Shown: piece by piece, positions 339 to 48,529 of the stretch
How positions within the stretch are numbered: position 1 is the first letter of the stretch
Layout: each line of letters begins with the position of its first letter
Source: Oscillospiraceae bacterium
Lineage (GTDB): Bacteria > Bacillota > Clostridia > Oscillospirales > CAG-272
Assembly: GCA_015063325.1 (NCBI GenBank)
Contig: SVUK01000004.1
Span: forward strand, 2,583 to 66,582
Length of the DNA stretch: 64,000 bases
Direction: 5' to 3'
The notes under the pieces: generated by a model
Databases searched by the model: none
Told to the model about the DNA's origin: nothing
What the model saw: only the letters and a program-made list of their open reading frames with translations
Program-made: the position numbers and the translations under genes

Positions 339-2096
339 ATGAAAAGAGTATTCAGCGTTTTATTGATTCTTGCAATGCTCCTCGGCACGCTCATCATTCC
401 TGTTTCTGCATTGGATCCGCAGGTTCCCGAAGTTCTCGGCGCCTCTATTCGCACCGAGGGCAACCAGGGACTTCGCTTCGTCGGCCGTATCAAAAAGACC
501 GGTTCCATTACTCTAACGCACGGCTCGGAGGCAAACTTCGGATTCCTGATTATTCCGGAATCCTCCACCGATGGCAGCGCCATCACCAAGGATACTGACC
601 ATGTCAGCCAAATTCCTGCCGCTTTGGAAATGGGACAGGGCAGTGTGGAAGCCGCAGGCTTAACCTACGATCCAAATTACTACTATTTCTGCGTAGTACA
701 AATCAATATCCCGGCAAACTTCTATGGCACCAACTTTGTTGCAAGAGCTTATATTAACAATGGCGGCTCCTACATTTATTCCGATAGCGGCGAAACGCGC
801 GCAAAACGCTCCATTCAGTATGTGGCGCAGACCATTGCCGGAATGGGCGGCGATATTCCGGCGTTCATTACCACGGTTTTGACCAAGTGTGCCGAAGAGG
901 GCTACGACGTTTATGTCAACGGCAACCGCTTCTTCCCGTCTTCAGGCAGCTATGCTTCCAGCACGCTGCAAAACACCTATGCTCGCCTGACCACCGCAAA
1001 GAAACTGAACGTGGCATACCTTGGCGGTTCTATCACAAAGGGCGTTGGCGCTTCCGATGCGAACACCACCTCTTGGCGCGCGCTGACCACCAGCTGGCTG
1101 AAAACCAATTTCCCAGATGCTGACATTACCGAAACCAACGCGGGTATCGGCGGCACCGGCTCGGTCTTTGGCTGCTACCGCGCCATTGACGACCTGAAAC
1201 TGGAGAACGATTCCAAGAAACCCGATTTGCTCTTCATCGACTTTGCCATCAACGATCAATACGACGGCATTACAGTGGCGGAAGTAAAGCAATATATGGA
1301 AACCATCGTCCGCACGGTCTACGAGTATTCGCCTTATTGCGACATCGTCTTCGTTTACACCACCGACCGCACTCGCCGTAATTATACCGATTCTTCCAAT
1401 TATCCCACGCTCGCGGCACAGCATGACGTTGCAACCAAGTACGGTCTGACAGAGATCTACGTTGGTAAACAGCTCTGCGAGGCAAAGAGCATTACCAGCA
1501 CATCTACTTGGGATAGCTCCAATTTGTTTGCCGACATTGTTCACCCGAACGATTCCGGCCACGCACTGTATGCCGGCTACGTCACCTCGGTCCTGAACAC
1601 AGAGCTGACCAAATCGCTCAACCCCTACGGCTATGTGGCTCATTCCATCCTTTCGGCTTCCTACAGCCCGCTGACGGCTCCGGCAAGATATTTCTTCAAC
1701 GCTTCTTCCGGCAAAACCACCGGCTTCACCCTGTATGAAGGAACGAACCTGGACGAAAAGGGCTATCTGAAACCCGAGCCCGGCGAGACCGGCGCACAGG
1801 TCAAGTTCACCTTCGTCGGCACGGGCTTGCAGCTTTGGACATACGCAAGAACGGTATCTTCTACCATCAGCGTAAACATTGACGGTTCTTCTAATAGCTA
1901 TACCATTCAGCGTAGCGGTTCGGACGGCAACAAGCCCTACCGCGTGGCTTCCGGACTTTCCAATACCACGCATACCGTCACCATTACGGTCACGGCAACC
2001 AGCTCCACCACGTCCAGCAACGTGCTTGACCTGATGGCACTGATGGTAGAGGGCGACCCGAACTTTACCGGTGTAACCTTTATCAATGTAAACTGA
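339..2096 (+). CDS. Secreted SGNH/GDSL hydrolase with an N-terminal uncharacterised domain and a C-terminal beta-sandwich
   Basis: Signal peptide (MKRVFSVLLILAMLLGTLIIPVSA); SGNH blocks YLGGSIT, NAGIGGTGS, DFAIND, DIVHPNDSGH; RBS AAGGAG supports ATG 339. Confidence 0.85.
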   Translation: MKRVFSVLLILAMLLGTLIIPVSALDPQVPEVLGASIRTEGNQGLRFVGRIKKTGSITLTHGSEANFGFLIIPESSTDGSAITKDTDHVSQIPAALEMGQGSVEAAGLTYDPNYYYFCVVQINIPANFYGTNFVARAYINNGGSYIYSDSGETRAKRSIQYVAQTIAGMGGDIPAFITTVLTKCAEEGYDVYVNGNRFFPSSGSYASSTLQNTYARLTTAKKLNVAYLGGSITKGVGASDANTTSWRALTTSWLKTNFPDADITETNAGIGGTGSVFGCYRAIDDLKLENDSKKPDLLFIDFAINDQYDGITVAEVKQYMETIVRTVYEYSPYCDIVFVYTTDRTRRNYTDSSNYPTLAAQHDVATKYGLTEIYVGKQLCEAKSITSTSTWDSSNLFADIVHPNDSGHALYAGYVTSVLNTELTKSLNPYGYVAHSILSASYSPLTAPARYFFNASSGKTTGFTLYEGTNLDEKGYLKPEPGETGAQVKFTFVGTGLQLWTYARTVSSTISVNIDGSSNSYTIQRSGSDGNKPYRVASGLSNTTHTVTITVTATSSTTSSNVLDLMALMVEGDPNFTGVTFINVN

Positions 2097-2124
2097 ACAA
2101 AAACAGAACAATAAAGTATAGATA

Positions 2125-2164
2125 AGCAAAACGGAGCCGGAAAATTCCAGCTCCGTTTTGCTTT
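2125..2164 (+). terminator. Intrinsic terminator
   Basis: AGCAAAACGGAGC...GCTCCGTTTTGCT stem followed by T residues. Confidence 0.7.
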
Positions 2165-2228
2165 AAAAATCGGACGGTTCAATGTAAACTTTTTTGTTCT
2201 TTTCCAGTTTTTTTCGACTGCTTTCATC

Positions 2229-2257
2229 TTGACTTTTCCAATTCCATGTGATAAAAT
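2229..2257 (+). promoter_or_regulatory. Sigma-A-type promoter
   Basis: TTGACT-17 bp-TAAAAT with an extended -10 TG. Confidence 0.6.
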
Positions 2258-2318
2258 AAAAATGAATAAGAATCGCTTCCGTTCGGGAGAAAAAATAAAC
2301 AAAGGCGGTAAAAATCAA

Positions 2319-5300
2319 ATGAAAACAAAGATTCGTGTTCTGATCAGTGTTTTGCTCGTGTCCGTTCTGCTGTTTTCAGCGCTTTCGGTTGTTGTGAATG
2401 CGCAAAAAGCGGAATCTCAAACCATTTTTGCGGACGAGCTGTTCGATCTTCTTTTTCAGGGGAAAATACCGCTGACCGACGAAGAGCGTGCCTATCTGCG
2501 CTCCGGCGAGACGCTTTCCGTAACCTATTCAATGGATGACGTAAACGAATCGGATGTTGTTATTGTTAATCCGGAGTATACGGGACTTTTGCAAATTACG
2601 GCAAAAGAGGTCAAAAAAACGCTCGAAAACGGAATAGAAGTAATTTGGACGCCTAAATCGGTTTGCGCAAACGGTGAAAGCGAGACCAATCTTGAAGAAA
2701 AAAATAACTACTACAGCTATACTTATGACAAGCAGTGGCATTCAGGAGATGTTACGGTTACCGTTCAATATACCATGAGCATTTTGGTTCCGGAAACGGT
2801 TCTTAATCGAATTTTGACGGCTGACATTGATGCGGTCGTTGCCAAGCGCGCGAAGATTATTAGCGATTTTAATCAGGCGAAAAACGACTACGATAAATAT
2901 CAAAACGATCTCTCGAATTATCAAACCGCGCATGCTCAATGGGTGATTGATAAGCAGGCGTATGACGATTATTTGACCCAAAAAGAAGCATACGACCAAA
3001 GTGTAGCCGATTACAATGACCTTGCCGCGCAATGGCAGACATACAACGACTATCAAACGGCTCTTGAAGAATACGGAACCAAGAGCCAGCAATATACGTC
3101 CTACAAAGCGACCATGGACAAGGTAGATGCCTGCCTTGCCATTATGGAGAGTATGTTTTCGGTTGCCGAGGAGGGCGAATATAGCTTTTATCAAAGTTTG
3201 GCCGGGAAATCGGACGACGCAATTCTAAACGATTTAACGGTGCTGACCCAATTTGGTGTAGTGAGTGCTGATATTGAAGATGCAAAAGAGGAAATTGATG
3301 CAATTAAAAGTATATTGAGTTCGTATCAAGAGAAGCTTAGCGCATCTTACGAGACAGATTTTGCAAAAAAAGAAACGTTGTTCCAAGAATATACAAACAG
3401 TTATAGCAATTTACGTAAAAGTTTTAAAAACCTTGATAACTATTTGAATGATATTTACGGAAAGGATGGAGTGCAGCAGGGGATCGAATCTGACTATTCG
3501 GATAGTGCTTTTCATTTTGCCCAATTTTTGACGCAACTTACAAATTATAAGGGACAGCTGGTGGCGGAACAAGCCGACCCGAATAAAATTACCTTCCCGG
3601 AATCCTATTTGGAGGAGCCAACTGCTCCAACGGTAGTCACCCAGCCGGAAGAACAGCTTCCCGAAACCAATCCGGCAGACGAGCCTGCGCCCACCGCTGT
3701 AAAAAATCCCGGTGCAGAACCCACAGAGCCGCCCTCGGTTGCCAATCCCGGCGAGTCTGTCGATTTTTCGCAGTTGAGCCCGGAGGAAACCGCATTGTTG
3801 GCAAAGTATGATGCCAACGAGCTTCCGGATCGGAGCGGCGAGAAAAAGAGCGAGCCGCAAACCCATCAGTTTGGTGAAACGGTAACAAAATCGATTGTTC
3901 AAACAGTAGAGTACAAAAATAAACGTACCGTTACTTTCCTGAATGAACGCGGTGACCAAAAAGGAGAAACGCTCGTTCTCGAATACGGGGAGGAAATTAC
4001 CGTAACGCCTCCGGAACTGCTCCAGTCGGATTTAAAATCCAACACCATTGCAAAAACATACGAATTTGACGGTTGGTGCCTTACCACAAACAAGAGCAAA
4101 CTATTTTCCTTTAAAACTCCAATTACCTCCAATATCAAACTTGCGCCCCACTATATTGAAACGTTAATCGAATATACAGTAACATGGGAAGTAGATGACA
4201 GAATTATCCGGCAAGAAAAAATTGCATACGGCGAATTGCCGCCGAAACCCCAAACACCGACAAGAAAAGATGATGGAACCGGAAACTTTATCTATTTGTT
4301 TGACGGTTGGTCTCCCGATGTCAAGGCGGTTGAAGGAGATGTAACTTATGTTGCAACATGGAGAGCTTCTCCGCGTACTTGCAAAATTACTTGGCAACTT
4401 TGGAAAGGGGAATCTAGCACCATTTCGGTAAACAATGGTGATATCCCCGTATATCAAAACGGTGCAACGCCGCAAAGACCCTCCGACGAAAACTACAGCT
4501 ATGAGTTTTTGCAATGGTCGCCAAAAATTGAAGCGGCAACAAAAGATATTATTTATACTGCCGTATGGAAGGCTACTTCCCTGAATCCACAGTCAGAAAC
4601 TTATACCATCACATGGGATTTCGATAACGGTGCAGACCCGGTTCAGGAACAGCTGGTAGCCGGAACGGTCCCGGAATACAGCGGAATTCCCACAAAACCG
4701 TCCAGCGCGCAATATAGCTATGAATTTGACGGTTGGACTCCGGAGCCTGTCGCGGTTACCGGCAATGCTACCTATAAAGCAAAATGGAAAACCACTTTAC
4801 GCGAATATACCATTACGTGGGATCTGGGATACGAAGGCGGCACGCCGAAAACAGAAACACTGAAATACGGCGATCCCTTGAACTATGGGGAAACGCCTAC
4901 CAGACCGGCGGAAGGGGATACCGTTTATACCTTTATCGGTTGGAATCCTGCGCCCGGCGCAACGGTAACGGGTGCCGCAACCTATACCGCGCAGTGGACG
5001 ACCAACGCAACGCTTTATACCATTACGTGGAACGTCGATGGAAAAGAGACCCACGTGCAATATTACGGCGGCGTGACCCCAATATACGACGGAACGCCTA
5101 CCAAAGAGCAGGACGCGCAATATACCTATGAATTTGACGGGTGGGATAAAGAGATTGTTCCGGCAGATGGTGACGTTACCTACACTGCTCAATGGAAAAC
5201 CACTTTGCGCGAATATACCATTACGTGGGTCGTAGACGGAAAGGAAACTACTGTACAGGTTGCTTACGGAAAGGATCCGAATTATCGGGGAACACCGACA

Positions 5301-6851
5301 AAGGCATCAACTGCATCCAACGTCTACGAATTTAACGGCTGGTCACCTGCGCTCGCTAAGGTCGAGGGCGATGCCACATATACCGCTCAGTGGACAAAAA
5401 CGCCGCGCGAATATACTATTACATGGGACCTTGACAATGGAACCGAACCGATTACAAGTCAGGTCGCCTATGGCAAAATCCCCACATTTCCTGAAGAATT
5501 TCCGCTTGTCAAAGCACCGGATGAACAATACAGCTATGAATTTGATAAGTGGGAACCCGAGCTGAAGGCGGTGACCAGAAACGAGACTTATACCGCCAAA
5601 TGGAAGACGGGGCCGCGGAGCTTTGAGATCACATGGAATCTTGGCTATGGAGAACCGGCAACGAGTACGGCAGAGGTTATGAGCGGTGAAACGCCCGTTC
5701 CGCCCGAAGGCGCAACCGCGCGCCCGGACGACGAACACTATCGCTATACTTTCGTCGGCTGGTCGCCCGAAATCGCTCCTGCAAATGCCGCTGTCACCTA
5801 CACGGCAGTATGGGAAAAAGTGCCGCTGGTAACGGATGTGGAGGGAAATACGTACCCCACGCAAATTGATGGCGAAACGGTCGTCGTAGATGCGGCGCAA
5901 AGTCAACTTGGCTTGAAAAACGTTATTGATTTTGCCGCCGAAGAAAACAAAACCATAACGATAAAGCGTGAAAACACCGAGTTTATTTTGCAGGCAAAGA
6001 TGTTCAAAGAACAGTTGCCCGGTGTGAATGGCATCCGTTGGGTTGAAGATACCGAGAACGGCGGTTTCCGCGTGGAATTGATCAATTCTGATGGAAACGC
6101 AATGGAAACTAAACTGACCTATCAGGTTACAATTCCCACCGTTGACGATAACCGGAAACTGAGCATTTATGAGCTTGACGGCGAAGGGATGACCGAGATT
6201 AAATATTACATAATGGAGTCTATCCCCAACCGTTTGACCTACACGGCGCAGGTCGGCAAAACGGTCGTTTGCAAAATTCGGTATAAACTGGTGATTGAGG
6301 GAACTTATTTCTCCAACCTTCCTGATTTTGCGGAACCCGGAGAGACAATCTCTCTTGCCGCGGTGAGGTGCGAGACCGGCTTTGAGGTTATCGGTGCAAC
6401 GCTGATCCACGAGGATGGAACTGAAGAAAAAATCGGAACCTCCTTTACCATGCCTGCCGAATTCGTAACGGTCAGATTGCAGGTCAATCCCATTCAATAC
6501 CATATCGTTTTCAAGTGCAACGATCAGGTGATTTCCGATAAATCCTATGACTACGGCGAAAATATTGAAGTTCCTGCCGATCCCACTTTGCCGGATGAGG
6601 AAGGGTACAAGTTTGAGTTTGTCGGTTGGATTCCCCAGGTCAGCCAGACCGTGGCAGGTGATGCTCGCGAACAGGTCTATGAGGCGAAGTTTGTCAAAGT
6701 TCCCAACGCGCCGCAGGTGGAAGAAAAAACCGGATTCATTGATTCTCCTGCGTTTGCAGTTCTGATTATGGCATTGATCGTCGGCGCTGTGACTGCCGTT
6801 GCTGTCGTTGCAGTTGTTGTTCGGATGAAGAAAAAATCTGATGATAACTAA
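2319..6851 (+). CDS. Large membrane-anchored surface protein: coiled coil, Pro-rich segment and multiple InlB B-repeat/Listeria-Bacteroides-type repeats
   Basis: Signal peptide; roughly 9-10 repeats of about 70 aa (YTITW...PTK...YEFDGW.P...V.GDATYTAQW); C-terminal TM helix followed by RMKKK. Confidence 0.85.
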   Translation: MKTKIRVLISVLLVSVLLFSALSVVVNAQKAESQTIFADELFDLLFQGKIPLTDEERAYLRSGETLSVTYSMDDVNESDVVIVNPEYTGLLQITAKEVKKTLENGIEVIWTPKSVCANGESETNLEEKNNYYSYTYDKQWHSGDVTVTVQYTMSILVPETVLNRILTADIDAVVAKRAKIISDFNQAKNDYDKYQNDLSNYQTAHAQWVIDKQAYDDYLTQKEAYDQSVADYNDLAAQWQTYNDYQTALEEYGTKSQQYTSYKATMDKVDACLAIMESMFSVAEEGEYSFYQSLAGKSDDAILNDLTVLTQFGVVSADIEDAKEEIDAIKSILSSYQEKLSASYETDFAKKETLFQEYTNSYSNLRKSFKNLDNYLNDIYGKDGVQQGIESDYSDSAFHFAQFLTQLTNYKGQLVAEQADPNKITFPESYLEEPTAPTVVTQPEEQLPETNPADEPAPTAVKNPGAEPTEPPSVANPGESVDFSQLSPEETALLAKYDANELPDRSGEKKSEPQTHQFGETVTKSIVQTVEYKNKRTVTFLNERGDQKGETLVLEYGEEITVTPPELLQSDLKSNTIAKTYEFDGWCLTTNKSKLFSFKTPITSNIKLAPHYIETLIEYTVTWEVDDRIIRQEKIAYGELPPKPQTPTRKDDGTGNFIYLFDGWSPDVKAVEGDVTYVATWRASPRTCKITWQLWKGESSTISVNNGDIPVYQNGATPQRPSDENYSYEFLQWSPKIEAATKDIIYTAVWKATSLNPQSETYTITWDFDNGADPVQEQLVAGTVPEYSGIPTKPSSAQYSYEFDGWTPEPVAVTGNATYKAKWKTTLREYTITWDLGYEGGTPKTETLKYGDPLNYGETPTRPAEGDTVYTFIGWNPAPGATVTGAATYTAQWTTNATLYTITWNVDGKETHVQYYGGVTPIYDGTPTKEQDAQYTYEFDGWDKEIVPADGDVTYTAQWKTTLREYTITWVVDGKETTVQVAYGKDPNYRGTPTKASTASNVYEFNGWSPALAKVEGDATYTAQWTKTPREYTITWDLDNGTEPITSQVAYGKIPTFPEEFPLVKAPDEQYSYEFDKWEPELKAVTRNETYTAKWKTGPRSFEITWNLGYGEPATSTAEVMSGETPVPPEGATARPDDEHYRYTFVGWSPEIAPANAAVTYTAVWEKVPLVTDVEGNTYPTQIDGETVVVDAAQSQLGLKNVIDFAAEENKTITIKRENTEFILQAKMFKEQLPGVNGIRWVEDTENGGFRVELINSDGNAMETKLTYQVTIPTVDDNRKLSIYELDGEGMTEIKYYIMESIPNRLTYTAQVGKTVVCKIRYKLVIEGTYFSNLPDFAEPGETISLAAVRCETGFEVIGATLIHEDGTEEKIGTSFTMPAEFVTVRLQVNPIQYHIVFKCNDQVISDKSYDYGENIEVPADPTLPDEEGYKFEFVGWIPQVSQTVAGDAREQVYEAKFVKVPNAPQVEEKTGFIDSPAFAVLIMALIVGAVTAVAVVAVVVRMKKKSDDN

Positions 6852-32212: not shown

Positions 32213-35200
32213 ATGATCACAACAAAAAGAAGACTTTTGAGAGGACTGATCGCGGTTATTATGATCATCAGTATGTTTGCGATTGTCCACATCATGCCGA
32301 TGGCGGCAAAGGCTGATGGCGATGTGCCTGTGCCCGGCGGCAGGGTCATTGTATGGAGCGGCGAGACGCTCCTGAATACCTTTTCGATGCGCGACGGTGA
32401 AACCCATAAGCTGACCGGGTCTGATTCCGCAAACGGGATCACCGTCAATTATTTGGGCGGTCAGTTATTATCCGACTCTGGGTTTTATGCAAACTACGAA
32501 AGCAGCACCAACTCTAATACGAAGATCATACGTCTGAACAACTCTGACAGTGAGCTGACGTTTACGTCAGCCTCCGACAACAGTTTTATCACTAAGATCG
32601 TCATAGAGTTCGATAAGTATTTTACTATTTCCGGAGCTACCAGCGATACCACGATCGACCACATTGTGGTCAACCACGGCGCGTGGACGAATGAGGATGT
32701 AATAGGCAGCAACGGCAAGCACACGCTGACTCTGGAAGGCAATGCGGCGCGCAGCGTCACAATAAGAAAAAACAGCGATACCTATCATTACGGGATCCGT
32801 GGGATCACCTCCATCCGGTTCTACATAACGGAAAACCTCTATACGATTCCCACTCTTGAGAGCGGCTTTTACGTGTATGATCAGGAGGACGGCGGCGTCA
32901 AGATCGTCCACGGCAATCCCGCCAGACCGCTCGCCGGCTCGCCGTTCATTGTCAGAAGCGGCGGCAAGATCGCCGGCTTTTCTCAGGCTGACGCCGACGA
33001 TACGACGTCCTATACGATAGAAAATCCTACGGCGGCGTTTACATTTGAGCTCGACGATGGCAGCGATACGATAACAGTCGACAATATCGACGATTTCATG
33101 CTGGCGTTGGGGCTGGCGCGCTACCGTTCGATCTACCTCTCGGCCGACCTCACCTTTGATGGCGGCTTTACGATCACGAGAACTGTCAGCATAGACCTCA
33201 AAGGGAAGTCGCTGACTTGCGACAGTTCTGCGACTGACAAAACCATCCGTGTGACCGGCGGTAATCCTACTGTTACGAGCACCGGCTATTATTGGTATGA
33301 TATCGTAAACAGTGATATCAGCGGCTTTGACAAGATCGAGGTCACCGGCGGTTCGCTGACGATCAAAGGCGGCAGATATGATCTCCCCGAAGGCTTCAGC
33401 GGAAACGTCAGACTGTCGGGCGGTCTCTACAAGCTGAATGATGCGGTCGATATGAATAAACTGGCCGACAGCGCCGTCAACCATTTGCCTGTTGAGATCG
33501 ACGGCACTTGGGCAGGGCTCAAATTTCACGTTCATGACTATAATACGATCTTTGAAACGCTTAGCGACGGCGGTATTCATTATATCAATCGCTGTGACGG
33601 ATGCGACCACACCGTAAAAGAGTGGACGCTCACCAACGAAGAGATCAACACGCTGATCGGGCTCAACGGCGGCGCCTTTACTCCCGTGACCAACTGGAAC
33701 CCGAATTCACCGGGCTCAGTTACCCTCTATCTGAGAATAACCGAGGACACCTACAACACCGCGATCGCCGCGCCCTATAATATGAACGCCGACGCGCTGA
33801 AAATGCTCAGAGACAACGGTATTCTCGGCAATTGGGAAACACACGGCGCATGGACGAACTATTCAACAGAGAACGGCGGCTATCACTCGGATGACGTGGA
33901 TATCACCTTCGATGATGACGGGTATCGTTATGTAGGCGTCGACGAACCGATGACCGTCACCTCGAAAAACGGCAAAAATATCTACCGCGCCGTGATACAT
34001 ATAGATGAATATTACAAAGAGCGGACTAACCAGACGTACGTCAACAGAGGCAATGCGATCATATCCGACGACGCTTTGACCATCACGGTAACGAATATCA
34101 ACTCCAAGTCCTTCACGTTTAACTTCAGCGGAGCATCTTATGAGTTCGTGCCGGTCGAATCGGTCGAGTTGTGTTATGCAGGCAGCGGCCAAAACATCAG
34201 CTATGTTACGGTGAACACGACGCCGGATGCCGATAACTGCTACGGCCACACGATGACCTATGACTATCGCGATCACACCTATACCTTACACTTCACCAGC
34301 ACGAACCCGCATCATCATCTGCAAGGCGAGCCTGACTGGAATCTCACGGATGACGGCGTCAATGCTACTATGACGGCAACAACGCATTGTACCGTATGCG
34401 GCGAAGAACTCCATCTTAACGTTGAATCGTACTCTTCGGGCACCCGCGAGGCGACGTATACGCGAGAAAGAACAAAGCTTTGGCACTTCCTTGCGCAAAC
34501 GGACCAATACTATTATTATGATTATTTGCAGGTCATAGGTCCGAAGCTCCCGGTCACCACTCATTCTATTGAAGATGGAAACGGCAACATACTCGAATAC
34601 TATGAAGATGAGAGTACCGGCAAGTATTTCATTGATCTTGACGGTCCGGCCATTGCGCTTGATCAAATTCGCATTCCGGAAACCAAGATCGACGCTGTTC
34701 CGGCAGCCGACGAGGCGGACGGCAACATCGAGTATTACACCTGCTCGAACGGAAGATACTTCAAGCTCGAAGACGGCAAGTATATTGAGATCGCAAGAAA
34801 CGCCTGGGTGTCACACATAGGCGAGTCTGAAGAGATCGATTTGACGATGCATCGCGGTACGATGGTCTTCACCGGTCAGAATGTCAAGGTGACTGCTGAC
34901 ATGATCTGGGACTGGTATAGCTCTTATAAAGGTGTAACCTTGTTCGGCTCTGCAGCACATGTTACCGGCTTAAACGGCAAGAAGATCAAAGCGATCGAAG
35001 TGACCAGATCGAAGGACGCAAGCTACGCTAGCCATATCTATATCAACGTTGGCGGAGAATATGATCATGACTATACTTTGATCGGCGACAGCGGCGATGT
35101 ATTTATGTACGGCAACTTATCCGCTTCCGAGGTAGCAGTGTACGGCGACTTTAACAATATCACGTCTGTCAAGGTCTGGTACTATGATGATTCGATGATC

Positions 35201-38200
35201 GTCACTTATACGAAGGTAGGGGCGATTGATCCCACTCCTACTGCGACGGGCAACATCGAGTACTACATCGGTCCTGACGGCAGATACTACGTCAGAGACG
35301 GTGCAAGATACGTGAGGATCGCGGAGAACTCCTGGATCATTCCCAAAGTCGTTCTGACCAAGTACGAAACGACACCGGCGACCGAAAACGCTGCCGGCAA
35401 CACCGAGTATTACGCCGGCGACAACGGCAAGTATTACGTCAAGAACGGCGACGATTACGATGAGATCACGTATAACTCGTGGATTATTCCCGCCCTCGAC
35501 GGCAGTACGTTCGAAACCATTGTGATACACACCGAATGGGATCCAAAAACCCTTTTCAGCGGAGAAAACGCCGACGTATCCTGCGACATACCCACCTTTA
35601 ATGAAATCTGCGTTGACGGCCAAGAAAACAGAAACTTGTACATTAACGCGAAATACGGCAAGACGTTTTATAAGGTCGTATTCCATATCTCAAGTTTGGA
35701 AGGAAACTCCGTTTACGCAAAGACCGACAAGGGTGCGATAGAGGTTTCCGATGACGGACGGACCGTCACGGTATGGAACTTCAGCTCCGACAGTCTCATG
35801 CTTTCCAACAAGATGGCCTTCTACGTAAATTCCGTTGACGTGTATTATACCGGCAGACCGGTCACGATCCTGACCTATTTAGATGAGAGTTTCGTTTTCA
35901 ACGGCTCCAACGATTACTACGGCGATCTTGCGTCCGCCCACGCCGACCTGTGCTATTCCGACGGCGCTTATGTCAGAACGTATGAAACCGGTGAAGAATC
36001 AAGTAAGATAACCGTCACCGGAAAGAACGGACAGGAACTCTACAAAGTAGTCTTCCACGTCAGTTATAACACGGAAAGAAGCTGGTGGGCGAAGGTCGAT
36101 CACGGCAACATCTCCGTATCCGATGACGGCACGACGATCACCGTGACGGACATCGGCGCAAACTCCGTCACGCTTTCGACGAATTTCTGTGACGAAGATC
36201 ATTTGTGGGACAGAGAAGAATGGGAGGAAGACATTCCCTGGGATACCTACTTCCAGGTAAGCTCTGTCGACATTTACTGCTGGGTAAACGAAGCAGAGAG
36301 AGTTACCTATTTGAAAGTTCCCGCAACGGCTCCTACCTTCACCTCGGCGGGCAACACCGAGTACTACGTCGGCTCGAACGGCAAATACTATGTCAAGGAC
36401 GGCGGAGACTACACCGAGATCGCCGAAAATTCGTGGATCATCCCCGTCATCACCCTTGAAAAGGTCGAGGCGAAAGCCGCCACCGTTGACGAGGCGGGCA
36501 ACACCGAGTATTATATCGGCTCGGACGGCAAGTATTACGTCAAGAACGGAAACGATTATACCGAGGTAGCAAAGAATTCCTGGGTCATTCCCAAGATCAC
36601 TTCCTATACGGTAACCTGGAAAAACTACAACGGCACCACTCTTGAAACCGATGTAAAACAGGTAACCGGCGCCAATCCGTCCTATGACGGTGCAACGCCT
36701 ACCAAACCCGCAGATGCGGACTACGTTTATACCTTCTCGGGCTGGACTCCCGCGGTCGTTCCCGTATCGGGCAACGCGACCTATACGGCTGTCTTCACCG
36801 CTTCCCCGAAACCCGACGTTGAGTTTTCCGGCAGAGTCTTTGACGACGGTGTACTCGAAGCAGATCAGCTCTCGCTCGGCGACGTCATCTCCCGCGGTAT
36901 CTACTTCTTTAATTGCAACGGTAAAACCATCGTTCTCAAGGGCGGCAGATACGGCACAAGAAATGGTGATGTATTCACGGTAGTATCCGCCAACAGTGCC
37001 GGATACACCGATCTGGGTATTACATTCAATGAATTCTGTGAACTGTATGACTATGACGGCGGTAGCCTTTTCTTCCCTGCTAAACAGAGCGGCGAGCTCG
37101 CCGATGCCGTGCTCGTTATGGCAATAGACGGCAACACGATCACCCTCGGCGGTTGTGAGCTTCCGGAGGGTTACGTTCACATCACATACGAGAGAGTTTG
37201 GGAAGAATTGCCCACCGAAACCCAACCGGGTATCCGTGAACACTACATCGGCTCCGACGGCAAGTATTATATTATGGAAAACGGCGAATATGTCGAGGTC
37301 GATTACGACTCCCTGATCATTCCGCCTACAGGCGGCGGCTCCGACCAGCCCGGCGGAGAAGGATCACAGGACGGACTCACAGCTTCTCAGATGACCGCCG
37401 ATATGATCGAGAATATGCATGATGTCTCCGATATGCCCGGCAACTTTGTTCAGGTCGATTTGGATACTGCAAGGTCATGGACCGGCGCGCCGCAGAACGG
37501 TTGGGCGCATCTGATTTACGCAACCGAAAATGGTGACCTGAAAGAGGTTGGATTCGAAAACGGAATGGTAATGGGCGACGGTATGCTCAGAATATCGGAT
37601 TTGTCGATGTTCCTTAATTGGGGCGAAGCGGTTTATTACGTTACCGGCGCAGGTTCCGGCTCCGGCGGACAGGGCTCACAGGGCGGTCTTACGGTTGTTC
37701 AGATGACCGCTGATATGGCTGAAAATGTTCATTTTGCCTATGATATGCCCGGCAACTTTGTTCAGGTCGATCTGGACACTGCAAGGTCATGGACCGGCGC
37801 GCCGCAGAACGGTAGGGCTTATTTGGTCTATGGAGTTGAAAATGAAGATCTGCTGAAAGCAGTCGTGTTTAATTGGGGAGAGTTTAACGACGATAGAACT
37901 TTCTTCGCACAAGAATTACGAGATTTCATCAATTGTGGTGAGAGCGTCTATTATGTCACCGGCTCAGGCTCACAGGGCGGCTCAGGTCAACAGGGGGGCA
38001 ATCTTGCGGTTTCTCAGATGACCGCAGATATGGCAATGAGTATCAATTCCGTCAACGATATGCCCGGCAACTTCGTTCAGGTCGATTTGGACACTGCAAG
38101 ATCATGGACCAGCGCGCCGCAGAACGGCAGATCATATCTGATCTATGGTGTTGAAAATGAAGAACGTCTGAAAGCTATTGTTTTCTTTGAGGGACGCTTT

Positions 38201-40393
38201 GAAGACGAAAGAGGATTCTTTGCAGATGAATTCAGAATGTTCATCGACTGGGGCGAGAGCGTCTATTATGTCACCGGTTCCGGCTCACAGGGCGGCGGTA
38301 ATGAACCTCAGATCACCTACACCAGAGTCGACTACAAGGCGCCTACCCCCAACGAAACCGGTAACCAAGAGTACTACATCGGTTCGGACGGAAACTATTA
38401 CGAGAAATACAACGATGAATATTATCAGAATCCGATCGACTACTTCGTTATCCCCAAGGTTTCCGTAACACGCCGCGCGGCGGTTGTGGCTACTCCCAAC
38501 GCAGCCGGCAACATCGAGTACTACACCGGTAATGACGGTAAGTATTATGTGAAGAACGGCAACATCTACGAAGAGGTTTCTTCTGCTTCCGTTACCATCG
38601 CAAAGGTTAGTGTCACCCGCCATGAGGCAGTCGCCGCTACCTACACCTCGGAGGGCAATACCGAATACTACATTGGCGCTGACGGCAAGTACTATGTAAA
38701 GAACGGCAACAACTATACCGAAACAACGCTTGAGGCTGTTACCATTGCAAGACTTACGCTTGTTCATCATAATGCGGTCGCCGCTTCCTGCACGGCAAAC
38801 GGCAATACCGAGTACTGGCATGACGAAGCGAACGACAAGTACTTCTCAGACGCAAATGGAGAACATGAGATTTCGCTTGCAGAAACGGTTGTACCCGCAG
38901 GCGGACATTCCTTTGGCGAATGGGTTGTGACCAAAGAGGCGCAAGTGGGCGTGAAGGGCGAAGAAACACGCACCTGCTCTGTTTGCGGCAAGACTGAAAC
39001 GAGAGAGATCGCAGCTCTGCCCTATGTACCGGTTACAAATGAAGACGGTGACAAAGTGTACGCCGAAACCGTGACAGAAGAAGTCAAAGATGTAACCGTA
39101 CTCTTTGCACAAGCCAAAGCGGAGGAAGGCACGGTCGAAGTTCAATCGAACGATTTTGCAATCGTATTTGACAGCGCTGCGGTCAGTGCGATCGGCGACG
39201 CCAATGTGACGCTTTCGGCAAAGGTAGTCACCGAAGACCTGCCGGAGAATGTACCGGAAAATGCTGAACTCGTACTGGAAGTCACACTCACGGGCGCAAC
39301 GTTCGAAGGCGGTCAGGCAAAGGTAACCATTCCGTTTGAAAAGGAAGCTCCCGCGGGTAAAGTTGCCAAGGTTTATTATATTGATGATGACGGCAACAAA
39401 ACCGATATGAACGCAACGTTTGAAAACGGCAAGGTAACTTTTGTAACCAACCACTTCTCCACCTATGTGTTGGTGTTTGAAGAGGCTGAGGCTGATGAAG
39501 ATACCCTGAAATTCTACGGCGCATCACTCACCCTGCAGAACAATCTGAAAGTGAACTTCTTTGTGGAAAAAGATTTGATCGATGGAAACGGATATGAAAA
39601 TCCCTACGTCCTCTTTAACATGAACGGCAACGAGATCACCGTTTCGGATTATACTGTCAGCGGAGACTATTATGTATTCAGCTTCAGCAACATTGCTCCC
39701 GACAAGATGAACGATACCATCACCGCTGCGCTTCACGCCACTCGTGACAGCATTGAATATGTCAGCGACGAACTGGAATACAGCATCGCGCAATATTGCT
39801 ATTCCATGCTGAGCAAAGAGACAACAAGTGATGCGTTGCGCACCTTGCTTGTAGATCTTCTTCATTATGGCGCGGCATCTCAGCTTTATACCGACTATAA
39901 TACGGATGCATTGGTTGACGCTTCTTTGACTGCGGAACAACTCGCGTGGGGCACGGCGGCAGATCCGGATATGACGTCGGTGACAAATGCTCGCTATCAC
40001 GAGATCGATAATCCGTCGGTATCATGGAGCGGTGTGTCACTGAACCTGAATGATTCAATCACCATGCAGTTCGTTTTCGCCGTGGAAAGCACCGAAGGAG
40101 TAACGGTTAAGGTTACAAACGGAAACGATGCTCTTTTGAAAGAAATTTCAGAGGAGGAACTTGTAGCTGCCGGCGGATACTATGTTGCAAAGTTCAAAGG
40201 GCTTACTGCCGGACAGATGAGCGATACCGTTTACGTCACGGCGTATCGTGGAGAGGAAGCGATCAGCAACACGGTGGCGTACAGCATTGAATCTTACGCC
40301 TGCGCAAAGCAAAATGACGCGAATGCTGTTCTCGCAAACCTGGTCAAAGCCATGATGAAATACGGAAATTCGGCATTTGTCTACGCGCAATGA
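32213..40393 (+). CDS. Giant (2726 aa) secreted multi-repeat surface protein with two C-terminal copies of the shared unnamed domain
   Basis: RBS AGGAGG; signal peptide ending AAKA; about 11 GN(T/I)EYY.G.DGKYYVKNG repeats; three ~100-aa QMTADM..DMPGNFVQVDLDTARSW repeats; one InlB-type repeat; CxxC segments. Confidence 0.9.
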   Translation: MITTKRRLLRGLIAVIMIISMFAIVHIMPMAAKADGDVPVPGGRVIVWSGETLLNTFSMRDGETHKLTGSDSANGITVNYLGGQLLSDSGFYANYESSTNSNTKIIRLNNSDSELTFTSASDNSFITKIVIEFDKYFTISGATSDTTIDHIVVNHGAWTNEDVIGSNGKHTLTLEGNAARSVTIRKNSDTYHYGIRGITSIRFYITENLYTIPTLESGFYVYDQEDGGVKIVHGNPARPLAGSPFIVRSGGKIAGFSQADADDTTSYTIENPTAAFTFELDDGSDTITVDNIDDFMLALGLARYRSIYLSADLTFDGGFTITRTVSIDLKGKSLTCDSSATDKTIRVTGGNPTVTSTGYYWYDIVNSDISGFDKIEVTGGSLTIKGGRYDLPEGFSGNVRLSGGLYKLNDAVDMNKLADSAVNHLPVEIDGTWAGLKFHVHDYNTIFETLSDGGIHYINRCDGCDHTVKEWTLTNEEINTLIGLNGGAFTPVTNWNPNSPGSVTLYLRITEDTYNTAIAAPYNMNADALKMLRDNGILGNWETHGAWTNYSTENGGYHSDDVDITFDDDGYRYVGVDEPMTVTSKNGKNIYRAVIHIDEYYKERTNQTYVNRGNAIISDDALTITVTNINSKSFTFNFSGASYEFVPVESVELCYAGSGQNISYVTVNTTPDADNCYGHTMTYDYRDHTYTLHFTSTNPHHHLQGEPDWNLTDDGVNATMTATTHCTVCGEELHLNVESYSSGTREATYTRERTKLWHFLAQTDQYYYYDYLQVIGPKLPVTTHSIEDGNGNILEYYEDESTGKYFIDLDGPAIALDQIRIPETKIDAVPAADEADGNIEYYTCSNGRYFKLEDGKYIEIARNAWVSHIGESEEIDLTMHRGTMVFTGQNVKVTADMIWDWYSSYKGVTLFGSAAHVTGLNGKKIKAIEVTRSKDASYASHIYINVGGEYDHDYTLIGDSGDVFMYGNLSASEVAVYGDFNNITSVKVWYYDDSMIVTYTKVGAIDPTPTATGNIEYYIGPDGRYYVRDGARYVRIAENSWIIPKVVLTKYETTPATENAAGNTEYYAGDNGKYYVKNGDDYDEITYNSWIIPALDGSTFETIVIHTEWDPKTLFSGENADVSCDIPTFNEICVDGQENRNLYINAKYGKTFYKVVFHISSLEGNSVYAKTDKGAIEVSDDGRTVTVWNFSSDSLMLSNKMAFYVNSVDVYYTGRPVTILTYLDESFVFNGSNDYYGDLASAHADLCYSDGAYVRTYETGEESSKITVTGKNGQELYKVVFHVSYNTERSWWAKVDHGNISVSDDGTTITVTDIGANSVTLSTNFCDEDHLWDREEWEEDIPWDTYFQVSSVDIYCWVNEAERVTYLKVPATAPTFTSAGNTEYYVGSNGKYYVKDGGDYTEIAENSWIIPVITLEKVEAKAATVDEAGNTEYYIGSDGKYYVKNGNDYTEVAKNSWVIPKITSYTVTWKNYNGTTLETDVKQVTGANPSYDGATPTKPADADYVYTFSGWTPAVVPVSGNATYTAVFTASPKPDVEFSGRVFDDGVLEADQLSLGDVISRGIYFFNCNGKTIVLKGGRYGTRNGDVFTVVSANSAGYTDLGITFNEFCELYDYDGGSLFFPAKQSGELADAVLVMAIDGNTITLGGCELPEGYVHITYERVWEELPTETQPGIREHYIGSDGKYYIMENGEYVEVDYDSLIIPPTGGGSDQPGGEGSQDGLTASQMTADMIENMHDVSDMPGNFVQVDLDTARSWTGAPQNGWAHLIYATENGDLKEVGFENGMVMGDGMLRISDLSMFLNWGEAVYYVTGAGSGSGGQGSQGGLTVVQMTADMAENVHFAYDMPGNFVQVDLDTARSWTGAPQNGRAYLVYGVENEDLLKAVVFNWGEFNDDRTFFAQELRDFINCGESVYYVTGSGSQGGSGQQGGNLAVSQMTADMAMSINSVNDMPGNFVQVDLDTARSWTSAPQNGRSYLIYGVENEERLKAIVFFEGRFEDERGFFADEFRMFIDWGESVYYVTGSGSQGGGNEPQITYTRVDYKAPTPNETGNQEYYIGSDGNYYEKYNDEYYQNPIDYFVIPKVSVTRRAAVVATPNAAGNIEYYTGNDGKYYVKNGNIYEEVSSASVTIAKVSVTRHEAVAATYTSEGNTEYYIGADGKYYVKNGNNYTETTLEAVTIARLTLVHHNAVAASCTANGNTEYWHDEANDKYFSDANGEHEISLAETVVPAGGHSFGEWVVTKEAQVGVKGEETRTCSVCGKTETREIAALPYVPVTNEDGDKVYAETVTEEVKDVTVLFAQAKAEEGTVEVQSNDFAIVFDSAAVSAIGDANVTLSAKVVTEDLPENVPENAELVLEVTLTGATFEGGQAKVTIPFEKEAPAGKVAKVYYIDDDGNKTDMNATFENGKVTFVTNHFSTYVLVFEEAEADEDTLKFYGASLTLQNNLKVNFFVEKDLIDGNGYENPYVLFNMNGNEITVSDYTVSGDYYVFSFSNIAPDKMNDTITAALHATRDSIEYVSDELEYSIAQYCYSMLSKETTSDALRTLLVDLLHYGAASQLYTDYNTDALVDASLTAEQLAWGTAADPDMTSVTNARYHEIDNPSVSWSGVSLNLNDSITMQFVFAVESTEGVTVKVTNGNDALLKEISEEELVAAGGYYVAKFKGLTAGQMSDTVYVTAYRGEEAISNTVAYSIESYACAKQNDANAVLANLVKAMMKYGNSAFVYAQ
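37380..38300 (+). repeat. Three intragenic tandem repeats of about 310 bp
   Basis: CAGATGACCGC.GATATG...GATATGCCCGGCAACTT.GTTCAGGTCGAT.TGGA.ACTGCAAG.TCATGGACC recurs at about 37388, 37700 and 38015. Confidence 0.9.
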
Positions 40394-40407
40394 AAGGATT
40401 GTGTGAA

Positions 40408-40554
40408 ATGAATAAAGAAAAGCAAAAGTTTATAGAACCTAAGATCGAGATCATTCGAATCAGAACGGAAGATATTATAACTACAAGTTCCGGAACAAAT
40501 CAGAATGATGACTCGGGTATCAACCTTCCCATTGATCCGTTTATTATAACATGA
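40408..40554 (+). CDS. 48-aa small peptide, FxxP...DIITTS leader family (copy 2)
   Basis: RBS AAAGGA, ATG 40408: MNKEKQKFIEPKIEIIRIRTEDIITTSSGTNQNDDSGINLPIDPFIIT*; ATGA overlap with the next gene. Confidence 0.8.
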   Translation: MNKEKQKFIEPKIEIIRIRTEDIITTSSGTNQNDDSGINLPIDPFIIT

Positions 40555-40808
40555 AGAAAACAATAGTCTTTATTCTCCTGTTCGTCATATTGCTTTTATC
40601 GGCAGTCGGCTGCACGGATCCCAAGAAGGATCCGTCTGCCGAAACGCAACCGACGAACAGCACAGAAACAAATTCAACCGATCAAACAGACTCAACAATG
40701 GCGCCGGAGACCTCGTCTTCTTCCGGCACTCAAACTACGCCGAGCACAGATCCACCGTTTGTCACAGGTAATGACGGCGTTGATTTGCCCGTTGACTCGT
40801 TTGATTAA
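40551..40808 (+). CDS. Small lipoprotein: lipobox, Ser/Thr-rich linker and a short C-terminal motif
   Basis: MKKTIVFILLFVILLLSAVG-C; tail GNDGVDLPVDSFD. Confidence 0.85.
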   Translation: MKKTIVFILLFVILLLSAVGCTDPKKDPSAETQPTNSTETNSTDQTDSTMAPETSSSSGTQTTPSTDPPFVTGNDGVDLPVDSFD

Positions 40809-40854: not shown

Positions 40855-40915
40855 CTCTCTGCAGTGAAACTGCCCTCACTCGAAAGTGGGGGCAGGATTC
40901 TTGATATGGGGTTTG

Positions 40916-44768: not shown

Positions 44769-44784
44769 AATACGTCCTCCCGGA

Positions 44785-45967: not shown

Positions 45968-46087
45968 TAGGTTTTTAAAATATTTGTTTCCAAAAGTGGA
46001 ATATTATTTTTGACTAACCGATTTTAAATATTGTTAAATATTTTTATAATTCCAAAACAGGAACGAACAGCCGAGGAACAATTCGTC

Positions 46088-46202: not shown

Positions 46203-46208
46203 CGGCAG

Positions 46209-46451: not shown

Positions 46452-46503
46452 AGTAAAGAAACCCCTTTTTCAAAAGATTCAGGATAATTATATCCAAAAA
46501 GCC

Positions 46504-46532
46504 TTGACAAAGTGGGCTATATATGATACAAT
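46504..46532 (+). promoter_or_regulatory. Sigma-A promoter of the peptide/DUF6273 operon
   Basis: TTGACA-17 bp-TACAAT with an extended TG; GGCTATAWAT occurs in the spacer and again just downstream (candidate XRE operators). Confidence 0.7.
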
Positions 46533-46577
46533 ATAGGCTATAAATAGACCATTTCAAAAAAAGGAAAGGAGAAAAGG

Positions 46578-46697
46578 ATGAAAAAACTCTATCAACCGCC
46601 GGAAATTCTGAAAATTTCAATTGATTTACAGGATATTCTGACCACCTCGCCGGGGAGCAGTGAACTTGACCCGGACATGAAGATTTCAAAGCCCTAA
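46578..46697 (+). CDS. 39-aa small peptide, YxxP...DILTTS leader family (copy 3)
   Basis: RBS AAGGAG, ATG 46578: MKKLYQPPEILKISIDLQDILTTSPGSSELDPDMKISKP*; first ORF after the promoter. Confidence 0.8.
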   Translation: MKKLYQPPEILKISIDLQDILTTSPGSSELDPDMKISKP

Positions 46698-46732
46698 AAA
46701 AAGAAAAAAGGACAAAAAAGGAGAAAAAGAAA

Positions 46733-48529
46733 ATGAAAAAGAAGATTTTATGGTTTGTTTTGACCGCGGTTTGCCTTGCGGCGTTGCTTGGCGCATTTTT
46801 TGCCGTCAATGCAACCGAAACACCGGCAACCGACATTGTCGGACACAACCTCGCGCTGGATGACAGCATTCAGATCGACATTATTTATTATGTTGATCAA
46901 ACGGCTCCCGAAGGGGCAGAGACCGGCGTTCTCTGTTGGTTTGCGCCGCAGGAGAGCTATACTCTTGAAAACGCGGAGTACAAGCTGAAGCAAAACGGCA
47001 CGAGAATCATCGGCGGAAAAGAATACGCGCAGTATAATTCCCCGCGCATCCACGCAAAGATGATCACGCAGGACGTTTACGCCGTTTCCTACGTCAAAGT
47101 AGGCAATGAAGTTACCTACAGCGATCTGGATAAATACAGCGTGTTGCAGTATTGCTACAACAAAAAAGGCAGTACCTTCGTTCGTCCCGGCGGCACGGCA
47201 ACCTTGGGCGAGCTGATTACCGATATGCTCAACTACGGCGCAACGGTGCAGAAATACTTCAATTTTAATACCGACCGTTTGGCAAATGCCGAGTACCACA
47301 TGAACACCGTGGTGGACGGCACGCTGAAAGACGGAACGGCGCAAGGGCTTTACTACGTTGGCGAGACGATTGTCCTGTCGACCGATAGGGTCATTCCCGA
47401 GGGCTACCGTTTGGTTTGGCGGAACAGCGCCGGCGTTTCGCTGGGCGTTGGGCGGACGATTGAGGTTGCCGCTCCCTCAAGAAATGAAACCTACACCCCC
47501 GTTTTGCAGGACGCAAAACTTGCGAAAGCCGCCTATACACGCATTGATGCAGACGGAAACGAGGACGAGAACGGCGACTACATTCTGTTCGGTTCCTATC
47601 CGCAAAGAGAAATTACCGACGGCACGCTCAAGCTCATGCTCATGATGCAGGTCGGCACGGTGCCCACCCCCGAAGACCCGAAGGGCTGGACTTCCTACGG
47701 CTACTATATCGAAGGCACCGTACAGGATTATATGTGGTACGTCGATGTTTCCTACAACGGCGAAACCTACCGCGGCGTGTATTTCACTTCCTATCGGTCG
47801 GATTGGACAACAAAAGCTTCCAACAAGGATAACACCCTTCAGGACGATTACGGATATACCCCGAATAATTTCTATTGGTTCCTCTATGAGCCGCTCAAAT
47901 GGAGAATTCTTTCCGAGGAGGACGGCACGGCACTGATCCTTTGCGAAAGCATTATTGACAGCCAGCAGTATTATAACAACACCGACAATCGCACCATTGA
48001 CGGGGAGACGATCTATCCAAGCAACTACGAACACAGCGACATTCGCGCATGGTTGAATAAGGTCTTCTACGAAACGGCGTTTGACAAATTGCAACAAGAG
48101 TTGATCGAAACAACGTTGGTTGACAACAGCGCAAGAAGCACGAACCCAAACAATAGCGCAACAGCATTCAATGGTGGAATCAATCTGTATACATGTAAAG
48201 ATACCGAGGATAATGTATTCCTCCTCAGTGAAAAAGAAGCTACAACTTCGGCATATGGTTTTGGAACATATGACAGTTATGGTCCGACTAATACAAGATG
48301 TAAGAAAACCACGGCATATGCAAAAGTACAAGGTGTATGGATTCCTTCTGCAGATTACGCCGATAACGGGCAATGGTGGCTCAGGTCACCGGATTATGCC
48401 TATTCTACCAACGGGCGTTGCATCAGCCACGGTGGATGGGCAAACCCGGATAATCGCTGTAATCCTAACAGTACACGTTTTGGCATTGTCCCTGCTATGC
48501 AAATTTGGCTTGGAACTCTGCCCGAGTAG
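46733..48529 (+). CDS. Secreted protein with the shared unnamed N-terminal domain and a DUF6273-like C-terminal domain
   Basis: Signal peptide; FGSYPQ, YEPLKWRIL, SDIRAWLN, DNVFLLSEKE, WWLRSP...GIVPAM motifs. Confidence 0.85.
   Translation: MKKKILWFVLTAVCLAALLGAFFAVNATETPATDIVGHNLALDDSIQIDIIYYVDQTAPEGAETGVLCWFAPQESYTLENAEYKLKQNGTRIIGGKEYAQYNSPRIHAKMITQDVYAVSYVKVGNEVTYSDLDKYSVLQYCYNKKGSTFVRPGGTATLGELITDMLNYGATVQKYFNFNTDRLANAEYHMNTVVDGTLKDGTAQGLYYVGETIVLSTDRVIPEGYRLVWRNSAGVSLGVGRTIEVAAPSRNETYTPVLQDAKLAKAAYTRIDADGNEDENGDYILFGSYPQREITDGTLKLMLMMQVGTVPTPEDPKGWTSYGYYIEGTVQDYMWYVDVSYNGETYRGVYFTSYRSDWTTKASNKDNTLQDDYGYTPNNFYWFLYEPLKWRILSEEDGTALILCESIIDSQQYYNNTDNRTIDGETIYPSNYEHSDIRAWLNKVFYETAFDKLQQELIETTLVDNSARSTNPNNSATAFNGGINLYTCKDTEDNVFLLSEKEATTSAYGFGTYDSYGPTNTRCKKTTAYAKVQGVWIPSADYADNGQWWLRSPDYAYSTNGRCISHGGWANPDNRCNPNSTRFGIVPAMQIWLGTLPE

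Follow-up and report, generated by a model that had tools for sequence, protein, structure and literature searches.

A candidate peptide-docking domain of secreted proteins encoded next to LPP-type precursor peptides in an Oscillospiraceae bacterium

How might large secreted proteins be retained at the cell surface if they carry no recognizable anchor, and why should the genes of such proteins be accompanied by genes of only about 40 codons? Both questions are raised by a stretch of 64,000 nucleotides from an Oscillospiraceae bacterium of the gut or rumen (assembly GCA_015063325.1, contig SVUK01000004.1, positions 2,583 to 66,582 of the forward strand), which is called the window here. The source genome comprises 1.68 Mb in 24 contigs and is 95.6% complete. 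Three secreted proteins encoded in the window, designated P0001, P0002, and P0003, carry stretches that an earlier note, made from the sequence alone, had aligned by eye and regarded as copies of one unnamed domain; all quoted stretches were recovered at or close to the positions assigned to them. In our analysis the copies fall into two families: family B, present as a tandem pair at the C terminus of P0002 (BB) and as a single N-terminal copy in P0003, and family A, present in P0001. Weighing all the evidence, we give an even chance to the proposal that family B is a portable extracellular docking module for the tail of the neighboring LPP-type peptide, possibly serving sortase-free surface display. 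Family A is probably a peptide-docking module as well.

RESULTS

Peptide genes mostly lie at the domain-coding end of the secreted-protein genes

The gene order around family B was analyzed in 51 loci, i.e., seven loci of this genome, 20 foreign loci with a BB pair, and 24 loci from the same genus; a further locus (L023) was dropped, as its gene end lay outside the locus. Overall, 36 of the 51 loci have a peptide gene at the domain-proximal end of the gene. In this genome the association holds for all seven B genes, the peptide being encoded upstream of the five genes with an N-terminal domain and downstream of the two genes with a C-terminal pair. For the foreign BB loci, an HMM (hidden Markov model) built only from the peptides of this genome detected a peptide gene right after the stop codon in 12 of 20 cases and nowhere else in 86 kb. 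The same-genus loci contained a peptide gene in 17 of 24 cases (8 of 13 with N-terminal and 9 of 11 with C-terminal domains), and all of these were domain-proximal. The peptide reading frames are intact across divergent loci, and the type of the peptide tail tracks the type of the domain. The link between the domain and the small peptides that had been proposed from the window is thus strongly supported by gene order, and it is further supported by a co-fold that passed its controls, as described below.

A comparable arrangement was observed for family A. Of the four A genes of this genome, two are preceded by a peptide gene. Fourteen A loci from the same genus could be evaluated (a fifteenth, L068, was dropped because it ends at a contig edge): nine have a domain-proximal peptide gene and one more a weak candidate (E value of 0.28), whereas the peptide lies at the other gene end in one locus and is absent from three. 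Neither of the two A loci that come from other families within the class was found to have a peptide gene. Considered from the side of the peptides, 9 of the 12 peptide genes of the genome adjoin a secreted-protein gene at the end that codes for the domain. The three orphan peptide genes are those at C5:7271-7423 (minus strand), C20:471-587, and C20:8466-8600. One of the three follows a partial secreted open reading frame (ORF), one lies between tyrS and holA, and one follows a major facilitator superfamily gene; two of these peptides have a tail of the W-D-x-G-W-N-I-F-T type, as in peptides beside family A.

The tail of peptide 2 is predicted to bind the tandem B domains

The structure of the BB pair of P0002 together with the peptide encoded directly behind it (peptide 2) was predicted with our own alignments in three runs and compared with three controls. 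The scores of the runs were 0.81, 0.84, and 0.85 (median, 0.84), whereas the best control scored 0.00, and the runs agreed in at least 50% of the contacts. For orientation, among solved complexes 116 of 157 reach the mark applied to such scores, and among mismatched pairs 2 of 215 do; for the present case both numbers are only rough, because the calibration was done without user-supplied alignments and our own alignments were used here. The model supports binding of the tail of peptide 2 to the BB pair without demonstrating it.

In the predicted complex, the interface of the peptide consists of residues 34 to 45 (D-D-S-G-I-N-L-P-I-D-P-F), i.e., the tail that it has in common with a neighboring lipoprotein, and of leader residues 14 to 16. 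On the side of B copy 1, the model places residues 9 to 18 in the interface, which correspond to strand 1 (K-F-Y-G-A-S-L-T-L-Q), together with residue 26 of strand 2 and residues 104, 107 to 108, 118, and 121 of the helix hairpin. The predicted contacts of copy 2 involve residues 183 to 185, 239, 241 to 243, 297, and 300 to 301. Tyr104 is nearly invariant, and conservation is densest in the helices (29 of 79 positions, versus 21 of 109 in the strands). The co-fold had been suggested in the earlier note as a check for β-strand complementation, and for the BB pair and peptide 2 a strand-addition geometry was indeed predicted. An electrostatic attraction of a phosphorylated peptide to a basic domain was considered and rejected, because the domains are acidic.

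The small peptides resemble LPP precursors

Among known small peptides, those of the window are closest in their features to the precursors of linear polyphosphorylated peptides (LPPs; Popov et al., Nat Commun 2026; PMC13381572). That article describes four components, i.e., the precursor LppA, the LppB protein, which is a recognition element (RRE) for ribosomally synthesized and posttranslationally modified peptides (RiPPs), the signal peptidase I (SpI)-like peptidase LppS, and the HprK-like kinase LppK. The precursors described there have 35 to 200 residues and a YxxPxVLxHQxIxFETxxS motif; the SpI-like peptidase cleaves after T(-1), Ser3 of the core is polyphosphorylated, and a dedicated peptidase and an exporter are required (PMC13381572). 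The clusters reported there are those of Bacilli and are situated in capsule loci, and the biological role of LPPs is stated to be unknown; the words "surface," "lipoprotein," and "Clostridia" do not occur in the main text.

The peptides of the window have a common N-terminal part with the motifs [YF]xxP and D/E-h-h-T-x-S, followed by acidic tails that vary. The peptide HMM retrieved 12 genes from the genome at E values below 1e-3, with the next match at 8.5. The RRE-binding motif, which in LPP precursors has the form [Y/W]xxPx-hydrophobic near the N terminus (PMC13381572), is present as [YFW]xxP in 9 of these 12 peptides, the remaining three having Y-E-M-M, Y-E-P-L, and Y-E-L-M at this place, and both T-x-S and [D/E/N]-h-h-x-x-S occur in all 12, with a spacing different from that in the published LPP logo (PMC13381572). 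A trio of adjacent genes at C17:403536-405054 encodes an HprK-related ORF, a PqqD-type RRE (PF05402, 1.4e-18), and an SpI-like peptidase (TIGR02228, 1e-5); the best NCBIfam matches of the PqqD protein are lasso-type PqqD models. The likeness to the LPP system comprises the lasso-like YxxP leader and the three adjacent maturation genes, with no lasso cyclase found, and probably the T-x-S near the putative end of the leader. A difference is that LPP precursor genes lie inside the biosynthetic cluster (PMC13381572), whereas none of the 12 peptide genes is located at the cassette on C17 and the precursors are scattered over the genome. Judged by sequence, the genes of about 40 codons in the window match LPP precursors, and an LPP-type gene set appears to be present (SpI-like peptidase, RRE, and HprK-like protein, with no cyclase).

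Classification of the products as lasso peptides was rejected in favor of LPPs, because neither a cyclase nor a B2 protease was found despite the lasso-like leaders. PF13471 scored below its cut-off in the genome. The match to PF00733 above the cut-off (E < 1e-30) is a 527-residue ORF beside CTP synthase that starts with M-C-S-I-F-G and was therefore taken as an ordinary AsnB. The same distinction applies to the phosphorylated lasso peptides of the paeninodin type, which share the leader motif, the PqqD-type RRE, and the HprK-like kinase (PMC13381572); neither a macrolactam cyclase nor a B2 protease was found here. In two foreign loci (L020 and L021, from genomes G014 and G087), the next ORF after the peptide has the P-loop S-G-T-G-K-S-T and resembles an HprK-type kinase; here, maturation genes immediately follow the BB gene with its peptide.

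A small lipoprotein with the same tail is often encoded behind C-terminal B pairs

The gene following peptide gene 2 encodes a small acidic lipoprotein, whose N terminus gave lipoprotein-type matches in NCBIfam, all of them below the cut-offs. Its tail belongs to the same type, [IV]xLPxDx[FW], as that of the peptide. The gene order BB gene, peptide, and lipoprotein is found in the window, recurs at the second BB gene of this genome, and is shared by 8 of the 20 foreign loci. Peptide and lipoprotein of one locus resemble each other more closely in their tails than those of different loci do (mean score of 29.1 versus 21.9 ± 2.7), and 91 of 14,833 derangements reached the observed value, a count that is generous because the eight loci include two that are closely related to each other.

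One fecal RNA library contained contigs that were 100% identical to positions 40265 to 40417, covering the end of the P0002 gene and the start of the peptide gene, and to positions 40578 to 40753 within the lipoprotein gene. These matches do not show transcription, and no conclusion was drawn from them.

Families A and B are separate by sequence and similar in predicted architecture

The claim that all of the proteins share one domain could be upheld in part. The three B copies resemble one another significantly, with BLASTP E values of 1.2e-10 for copy 1 versus the domain of P0003 and of 4e-10 for copy 1 versus copy 2, and a profile-profile comparison of the tandem copies by hhalign (36 homologues each) gave a probability of 99.2% (E value of 1e-19). 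The copy of P0001, which opens with G-A-S-I-R-T-E-G-N-Q-G-L-R-F, was not joined to them: BLASTP detected no significant similarity between A and B (E ≥ 1.5), hhalign returned probabilities of 0.34%, 0.49%, and 0.13%, and phmmer likewise gave no connection. When the profiles were enlarged to 46 A and 81 B sequences and hhalign was run with a greedy setting, an alignment of 141 columns was obtained (P value of 0.0067; probability, 5.7%), which is full-length and in the same register as the alignment made by eye. This alignment is a hint and no proof of homology. As BLASTP, phmmer, and hhalign all remained below accepted thresholds, treatment of A and B as a single domain by sequence was rejected.

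AlphaFold was used to predict the structures of both families. The B pair was modeled with a predicted local distance difference test (pLDDT) value of 95.5 and a predicted template modeling score of 0.90, and the A domain (window positions 417 to 911) with a pLDDT of 90.9, its strands lying within residues 5 to 121 and its helices within residues 133 to 161. Structure prediction, another of the checks suggested at the outset, gave the same build for A and for each B copy, namely, a predicted sandwich of seven to nine strands, similar to fibronectin type III (FN3) domains, followed by a hairpin of two C-terminal helices in the same order of elements. Of the 50 best neighbors of each in the PDB, 22 are common to A and B across the two lists, including the one at rank 1; FN3 domains, CBM56, and CBM21 are among them (CBM, carbohydrate-binding module). 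Foldseek returned generic immunoglobulin/FN3 matches for B and none at an E value of ≤1e-3 for A. A specific fold relative was thus rejected, since Foldseek and VIA-align yielded only generic FN3- or CBM-like neighbors.

Family B is large, portable, and unnamed

The four copies in the window gave no match above the curated cut-offs in Pfam or NCBIfam, and the B region was not covered by any Pfam family in 28 of 28 representatives scanned. A profile search against PDB sequences produced nothing for B and a single match, with an E value of 0.83, for A; the nearest clusters in the ESM Atlas have no Pfam family in common, a metagenome scan with the N-terminal type of B domain gave one short irrelevant match, and neither this domain nor a pairing of peptide and domain turned up in our literature search. 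A B profile built from nine copies of this genome, on the other hand, matched 11,032 representative clusters (50% identity) at E values of ≤1e-3, of which 6,008 were at ≤1e-10 and 626 at ≤1e-30. Among the best 150 rows of this search, 146 contained two or three matched stretches, and those rows that were inspected had a tandem B pair at the extreme C terminus. Family B is therefore a large family without a name in Pfam or NCBIfam and without a sequence relative in the PDB.

The domain had been described as portable, occurring N- or C-terminally on unrelated cargo, and this description was borne out. In the 28 representatives the B domain accompanies LRR_5, cohesin, CBM26, CUB, transglutaminase, or Flg_new_2 domains, and B domains are found on DUF6273 and giant repeat proteins as well; the 27 homologues of the N-terminal single-copy type obtained by word search have similarly mixed cargo. 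Family A has 28 homologues, some of them SGNH proteins and the others about 850 residues long and without a Pfam family. The phyletic distribution was assessed in samples of genomes, so that a zero means not found among those searched. Within the genus, B was matched in 12 of 24 genomes and A in 5 of 24; in other genomes of the same order, neither was found (0 of 16 each); in other genomes of the class, the numbers were 7 of 199 for B and 2 of 199 for A; and in other genomes of the phylum, B was found in 0 of 400.

The carrier proteins have signal peptides and no recognizable anchor

The coordinates of the features of the window are listed in Table 1. P0001, P0002, and P0003 all have Sec-type signal peptides. 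Motif, Pfam, and hydrophobicity analyses agree with the previous statement that the domain-bearing proteins are devoid of conventional anchors: in none of the three was an LPxTG motif or a C-terminal transmembrane or hydrophobic segment found, and the Pfam scan detected no S-layer homology (SLH) domain. Conversely, the protein encoded at 2319-6851 has a C-terminal transmembrane segment and no copy of the domain, as had been noted. No match to sortase (PF04203) was found in the genome. The genome has a single SLH match (C17:140154-140297) while encoding many leucine-rich repeat (LRR), cohesin, and giant repeat proteins.

Pfam confirmed the assignment of SGNH hydrolase and DUF6273 as cargo of P0001 and P0003. 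The start codon of P0001 at position 339 corresponds to the start of homologues of 585 residues. In P0002, the B copies occupy approximately residues 2436 to 2560 and 2607 to 2726. Short repeats of the G-N-T-E-Y-Y-x-G-x-D-G-K-Y-Y type are numerous in the body of this protein (32213-39480), which also has three longer repeats of about 95 residues (M-T-A-D-M ... N-F-V-Q-V-D-L-D-T-A-R-S-W-T). Neither kind matches a Pfam family, and no Pfam family was matched in the protein as a whole. In P0003, the B domain spans approximately residues 37 to 175. Directly 3′ of its gene, at 48533-49486, lies a second DUF6273 gene with a GTG start and without a signal peptide or B domain; its product is close to the C-terminal half of P0003, so that it looks like a tandem duplicate. 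At the other end of the window, peptide gene 1 sits between the end of an A-like gene, encoding a protein of 920 residues, and the N-terminal A domain of P0001. The weaker domain match that had been noted there, at 2-181, is present (Table 1); no Pfam or NCBIfam match was obtained for the 920-residue protein. A second open ATG lies upstream of peptide gene 2, at position 40390.

Table 1. Features of the window
Feature	Position	Strand	Description
920-residue secreted protein, C-terminal end	2..133	+	Gene start upstream of window; weak family-A-like match (G000:C18:2413-2715), family A profile E 8.6e-4
LPP-type precursor peptide gene 1	203..325	+	40 residues; core ends W-D-x-x-W-N-I...; HMM E 3.6e-16; YxxP and T-x-S
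P0001	339..2096	+	Signal peptide, family A domain, SGNH hydrolase PF13472 (3.6e-16), CE2_N-like domain PF17996
Family A domain (P0001)	429..899	+	Predicted FN3-like sandwich and two helices; AlphaFold pLDDT 90.9; no Pfam/NCBIfam match
P0002	32213..40393	+	Secreted repeat protein of 2726 residues; tandem B pair at end; hydrophobic segment N-terminal only
Family B domain, copy 1 (P0002)	39518..39892	+	Profile match 3.4e-49; AlphaFold strands 12-99, helices 101-136; predicted peptide-binding site
Family B domain, copy 2 (P0002)	39986..40387	+	Profile match 6.8e-39; AlphaFold strands 168-266, helices 268-301
LPP-type precursor peptide gene 2	40408..40554	+	48 residues; tail G-I-N-L-P-I-D-P-F; HMM E 4e-18; residues 34-45 predicted interface
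Small acidic lipoprotein	40551..40808	+	85 residues, low complexity, lipobox ...AVGC; tail G-V-D-L-P-V-D-S-F-D, as in peptide 2
Terminator-like hairpin	40870-40895		After lipoprotein gene; consensus match only
Promoter-like site (TTGACA-17-TACAAT, TG)	46504..46532	+	Before peptide gene 3; 11 of 12 consensus positions; consensus match only
LPP-type precursor peptide gene 3	46578..46697	+	39 residues; 35 nt before P0003; HMM E 7e-18
P0003	46733..48529	+	Signal peptide, single N-terminal B domain, DUF6273 (PF19789, 1.8e-21, residues 397-579)
Family B domain, single N-terminal copy (P0003)	46820..47305	+	Profile match 1.2e-68; 27 homologues with other cargo

DISCUSSION

The position of the peptide genes, the co-fold, and the common tail of peptide and lipoprotein can be combined into a working model for family B. 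The module would bind the adjacently encoded peptide by its acidic, aromatic C-terminal tail, which is predicted to be added as a further strand along strand 1 (G-A-S-L-T-L) and packed against the helix hairpin. Before export, the single cassette of kinase, RRE, and SpI-like peptidase would remove the lasso-like leader and may phosphorylate the precursor. Behind C-terminal pairs, the lipoprotein, which has the same tail, might tether the secreted protein to the membrane via a long disordered linker. The outcome would be a noncovalent surface display in an organism without a sortase match; tethering of this kind is suggested because the lipoprotein shares the tail and no sortase match is found in the genome. 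The free peptide may then serve either as an additional anchor or as a competitor by which the protein is released. An extended version of the model, in which the LPP-type peptides are the encoded cognate ligands of a docking superfamily comprising both A and B on surface proteins of Clostridia from gut and rumen and form, with the lipoprotein, a previously unrecognized, sortase-independent system of display or release, each secreted protein bringing its own peptide "address" beside its docking domain, is considered tentative, and we would sooner doubt than adopt it at present.

Several observations weigh against these proposals. A neighboring peptide was not detectable in 15 of the 51 B loci, 3 of the 12 peptides of the genome adjoin no recognized A or B domain, and the lipoprotein occurs in only 8 of the 20 foreign BB loci. 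The co-fold covers one pair and one tail type, and the peptides of the N-terminal type of B and of family A differ in their tails; the support it lends is model confidence, and the pLDDT of the peptide in the complex is only 44 to 51. Domain and peptide are both acidic, with isoelectric points of 4.0 to 5.0. The ORF assigned as the kinase matches HprK_rel_A weakly (E value of 1.3e-4, far below the cut-off). Finally, the homology of A and B is unproven, and they may represent one clear family and a look-alike of the same architecture.

The alternative that fares best retains the binding and changes its purpose. The peptide would be a regulator or mask in the docking groove, controlling cargo activity, oligomerization, or release, and the lipoprotein would be the true partner or another competitor. 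This explanation draws on the same co-fold and adjacency evidence as the anchoring model; a single tail in peptide and lipoprotein would lead them to compete for one site, and N-terminal B genes with a peptide and without a lipoprotein fit it as well. No point separates it from anchoring, and we regard it as unlikely on the whole.

Binding of a different ligand is proposed by the second alternative, according to which B is a CBM-like module that binds carbohydrate or cell wall and holds the proteins on wall polymers, the peptides being co-transcribed neighbors with a related role in envelope or biofilm and without contact to the domain. The best structural neighbors of the single domain include modules that bind glucan and starch, namely, CBM56 (5t7a and 6a6c), the N-domain of β-GRP (3aqx and 3aqz), and CBM21 (7qfa and 2m83), tandem accessory modules at the C terminus are typical of wall-binding domains, and 15 of the 51 B loci lack a neighboring peptide. 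It leaves unexplained, however, why the peptide is encoded at the domain-coding end for N-terminal and C-terminal domains alike, why the lipoprotein shares the tail, and why the co-fold scored 0.84 against 0.00 for the controls. We judge it decidedly unlikely.

The domain might also be a sorting or processing tag for a machine of export or maturation that also serves the peptides, comparable to the C-terminal domain of the type IX secretion system. Its mostly extreme C-terminal location on very diverse cargo would agree with such a role, as would the dedicated peptidase and exporter that LPPs require (PMC13381572). On the other hand, a single N-terminal copy works too, behind an ordinary signal peptide, the carrier proteins all have Sec-type signal peptides, and the cassette proteins seemingly have neither signal peptides nor transmembrane segments according to an informal inspection of the translations, so that we hold a sorting function to be quite improbable. 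Genetic hitch-hiking, in which domain and peptide form a recombination cassette among surface-protein genes without functional interplay, could account for the many unrelated cargos and the patchy distribution but not for tails that track the domain type, a co-fold that passes its controls, and peptide frames that stay intact across divergent loci, and it is very improbable.

Returning to the docking model, the binding mode predicted for B can be likened to that of PDZ domains, which bind a C-terminal tail as an extra strand on an edge strand beside a helix. The fold is a different one, i.e., an FN3-like sandwich with a helix hairpin; the sequences are unrelated, and B would act outside the cell, in bacteria. 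With the noncovalent display modules of Gram-positive bacteria, i.e., the cohesin-dockerin pair and SLH, CWB2, and LysM domains, family B would share the character of a portable module that is placed at either terminus of unrelated secreted cargo and is proposed to hold it at the surface. In contrast to these, the partner of B would be a tail of about 10 residues of a RiPP or lipoprotein rather than a domain or a wall polymer. None of them has a sequence match or a specific fold match to B; some B proteins carry cohesin domains themselves.

The model is directly testable with a protein of 300 residues and synthetic peptides of 12 residues. If it is true, it would provide the first functional handle on the LPP RiPPs and would give a name and an explanation to a domain family of about 11,000 clusters, found as a tag on LRR, cohesin, CBM, and giant adhesin-like proteins in Clostridia of gut and rumen. 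The many diverged pairs of domain and tail would offer a natural supply of orthogonal protein-peptide docking parts. For the organisms themselves, it would point to a route to surface retention without sortase.

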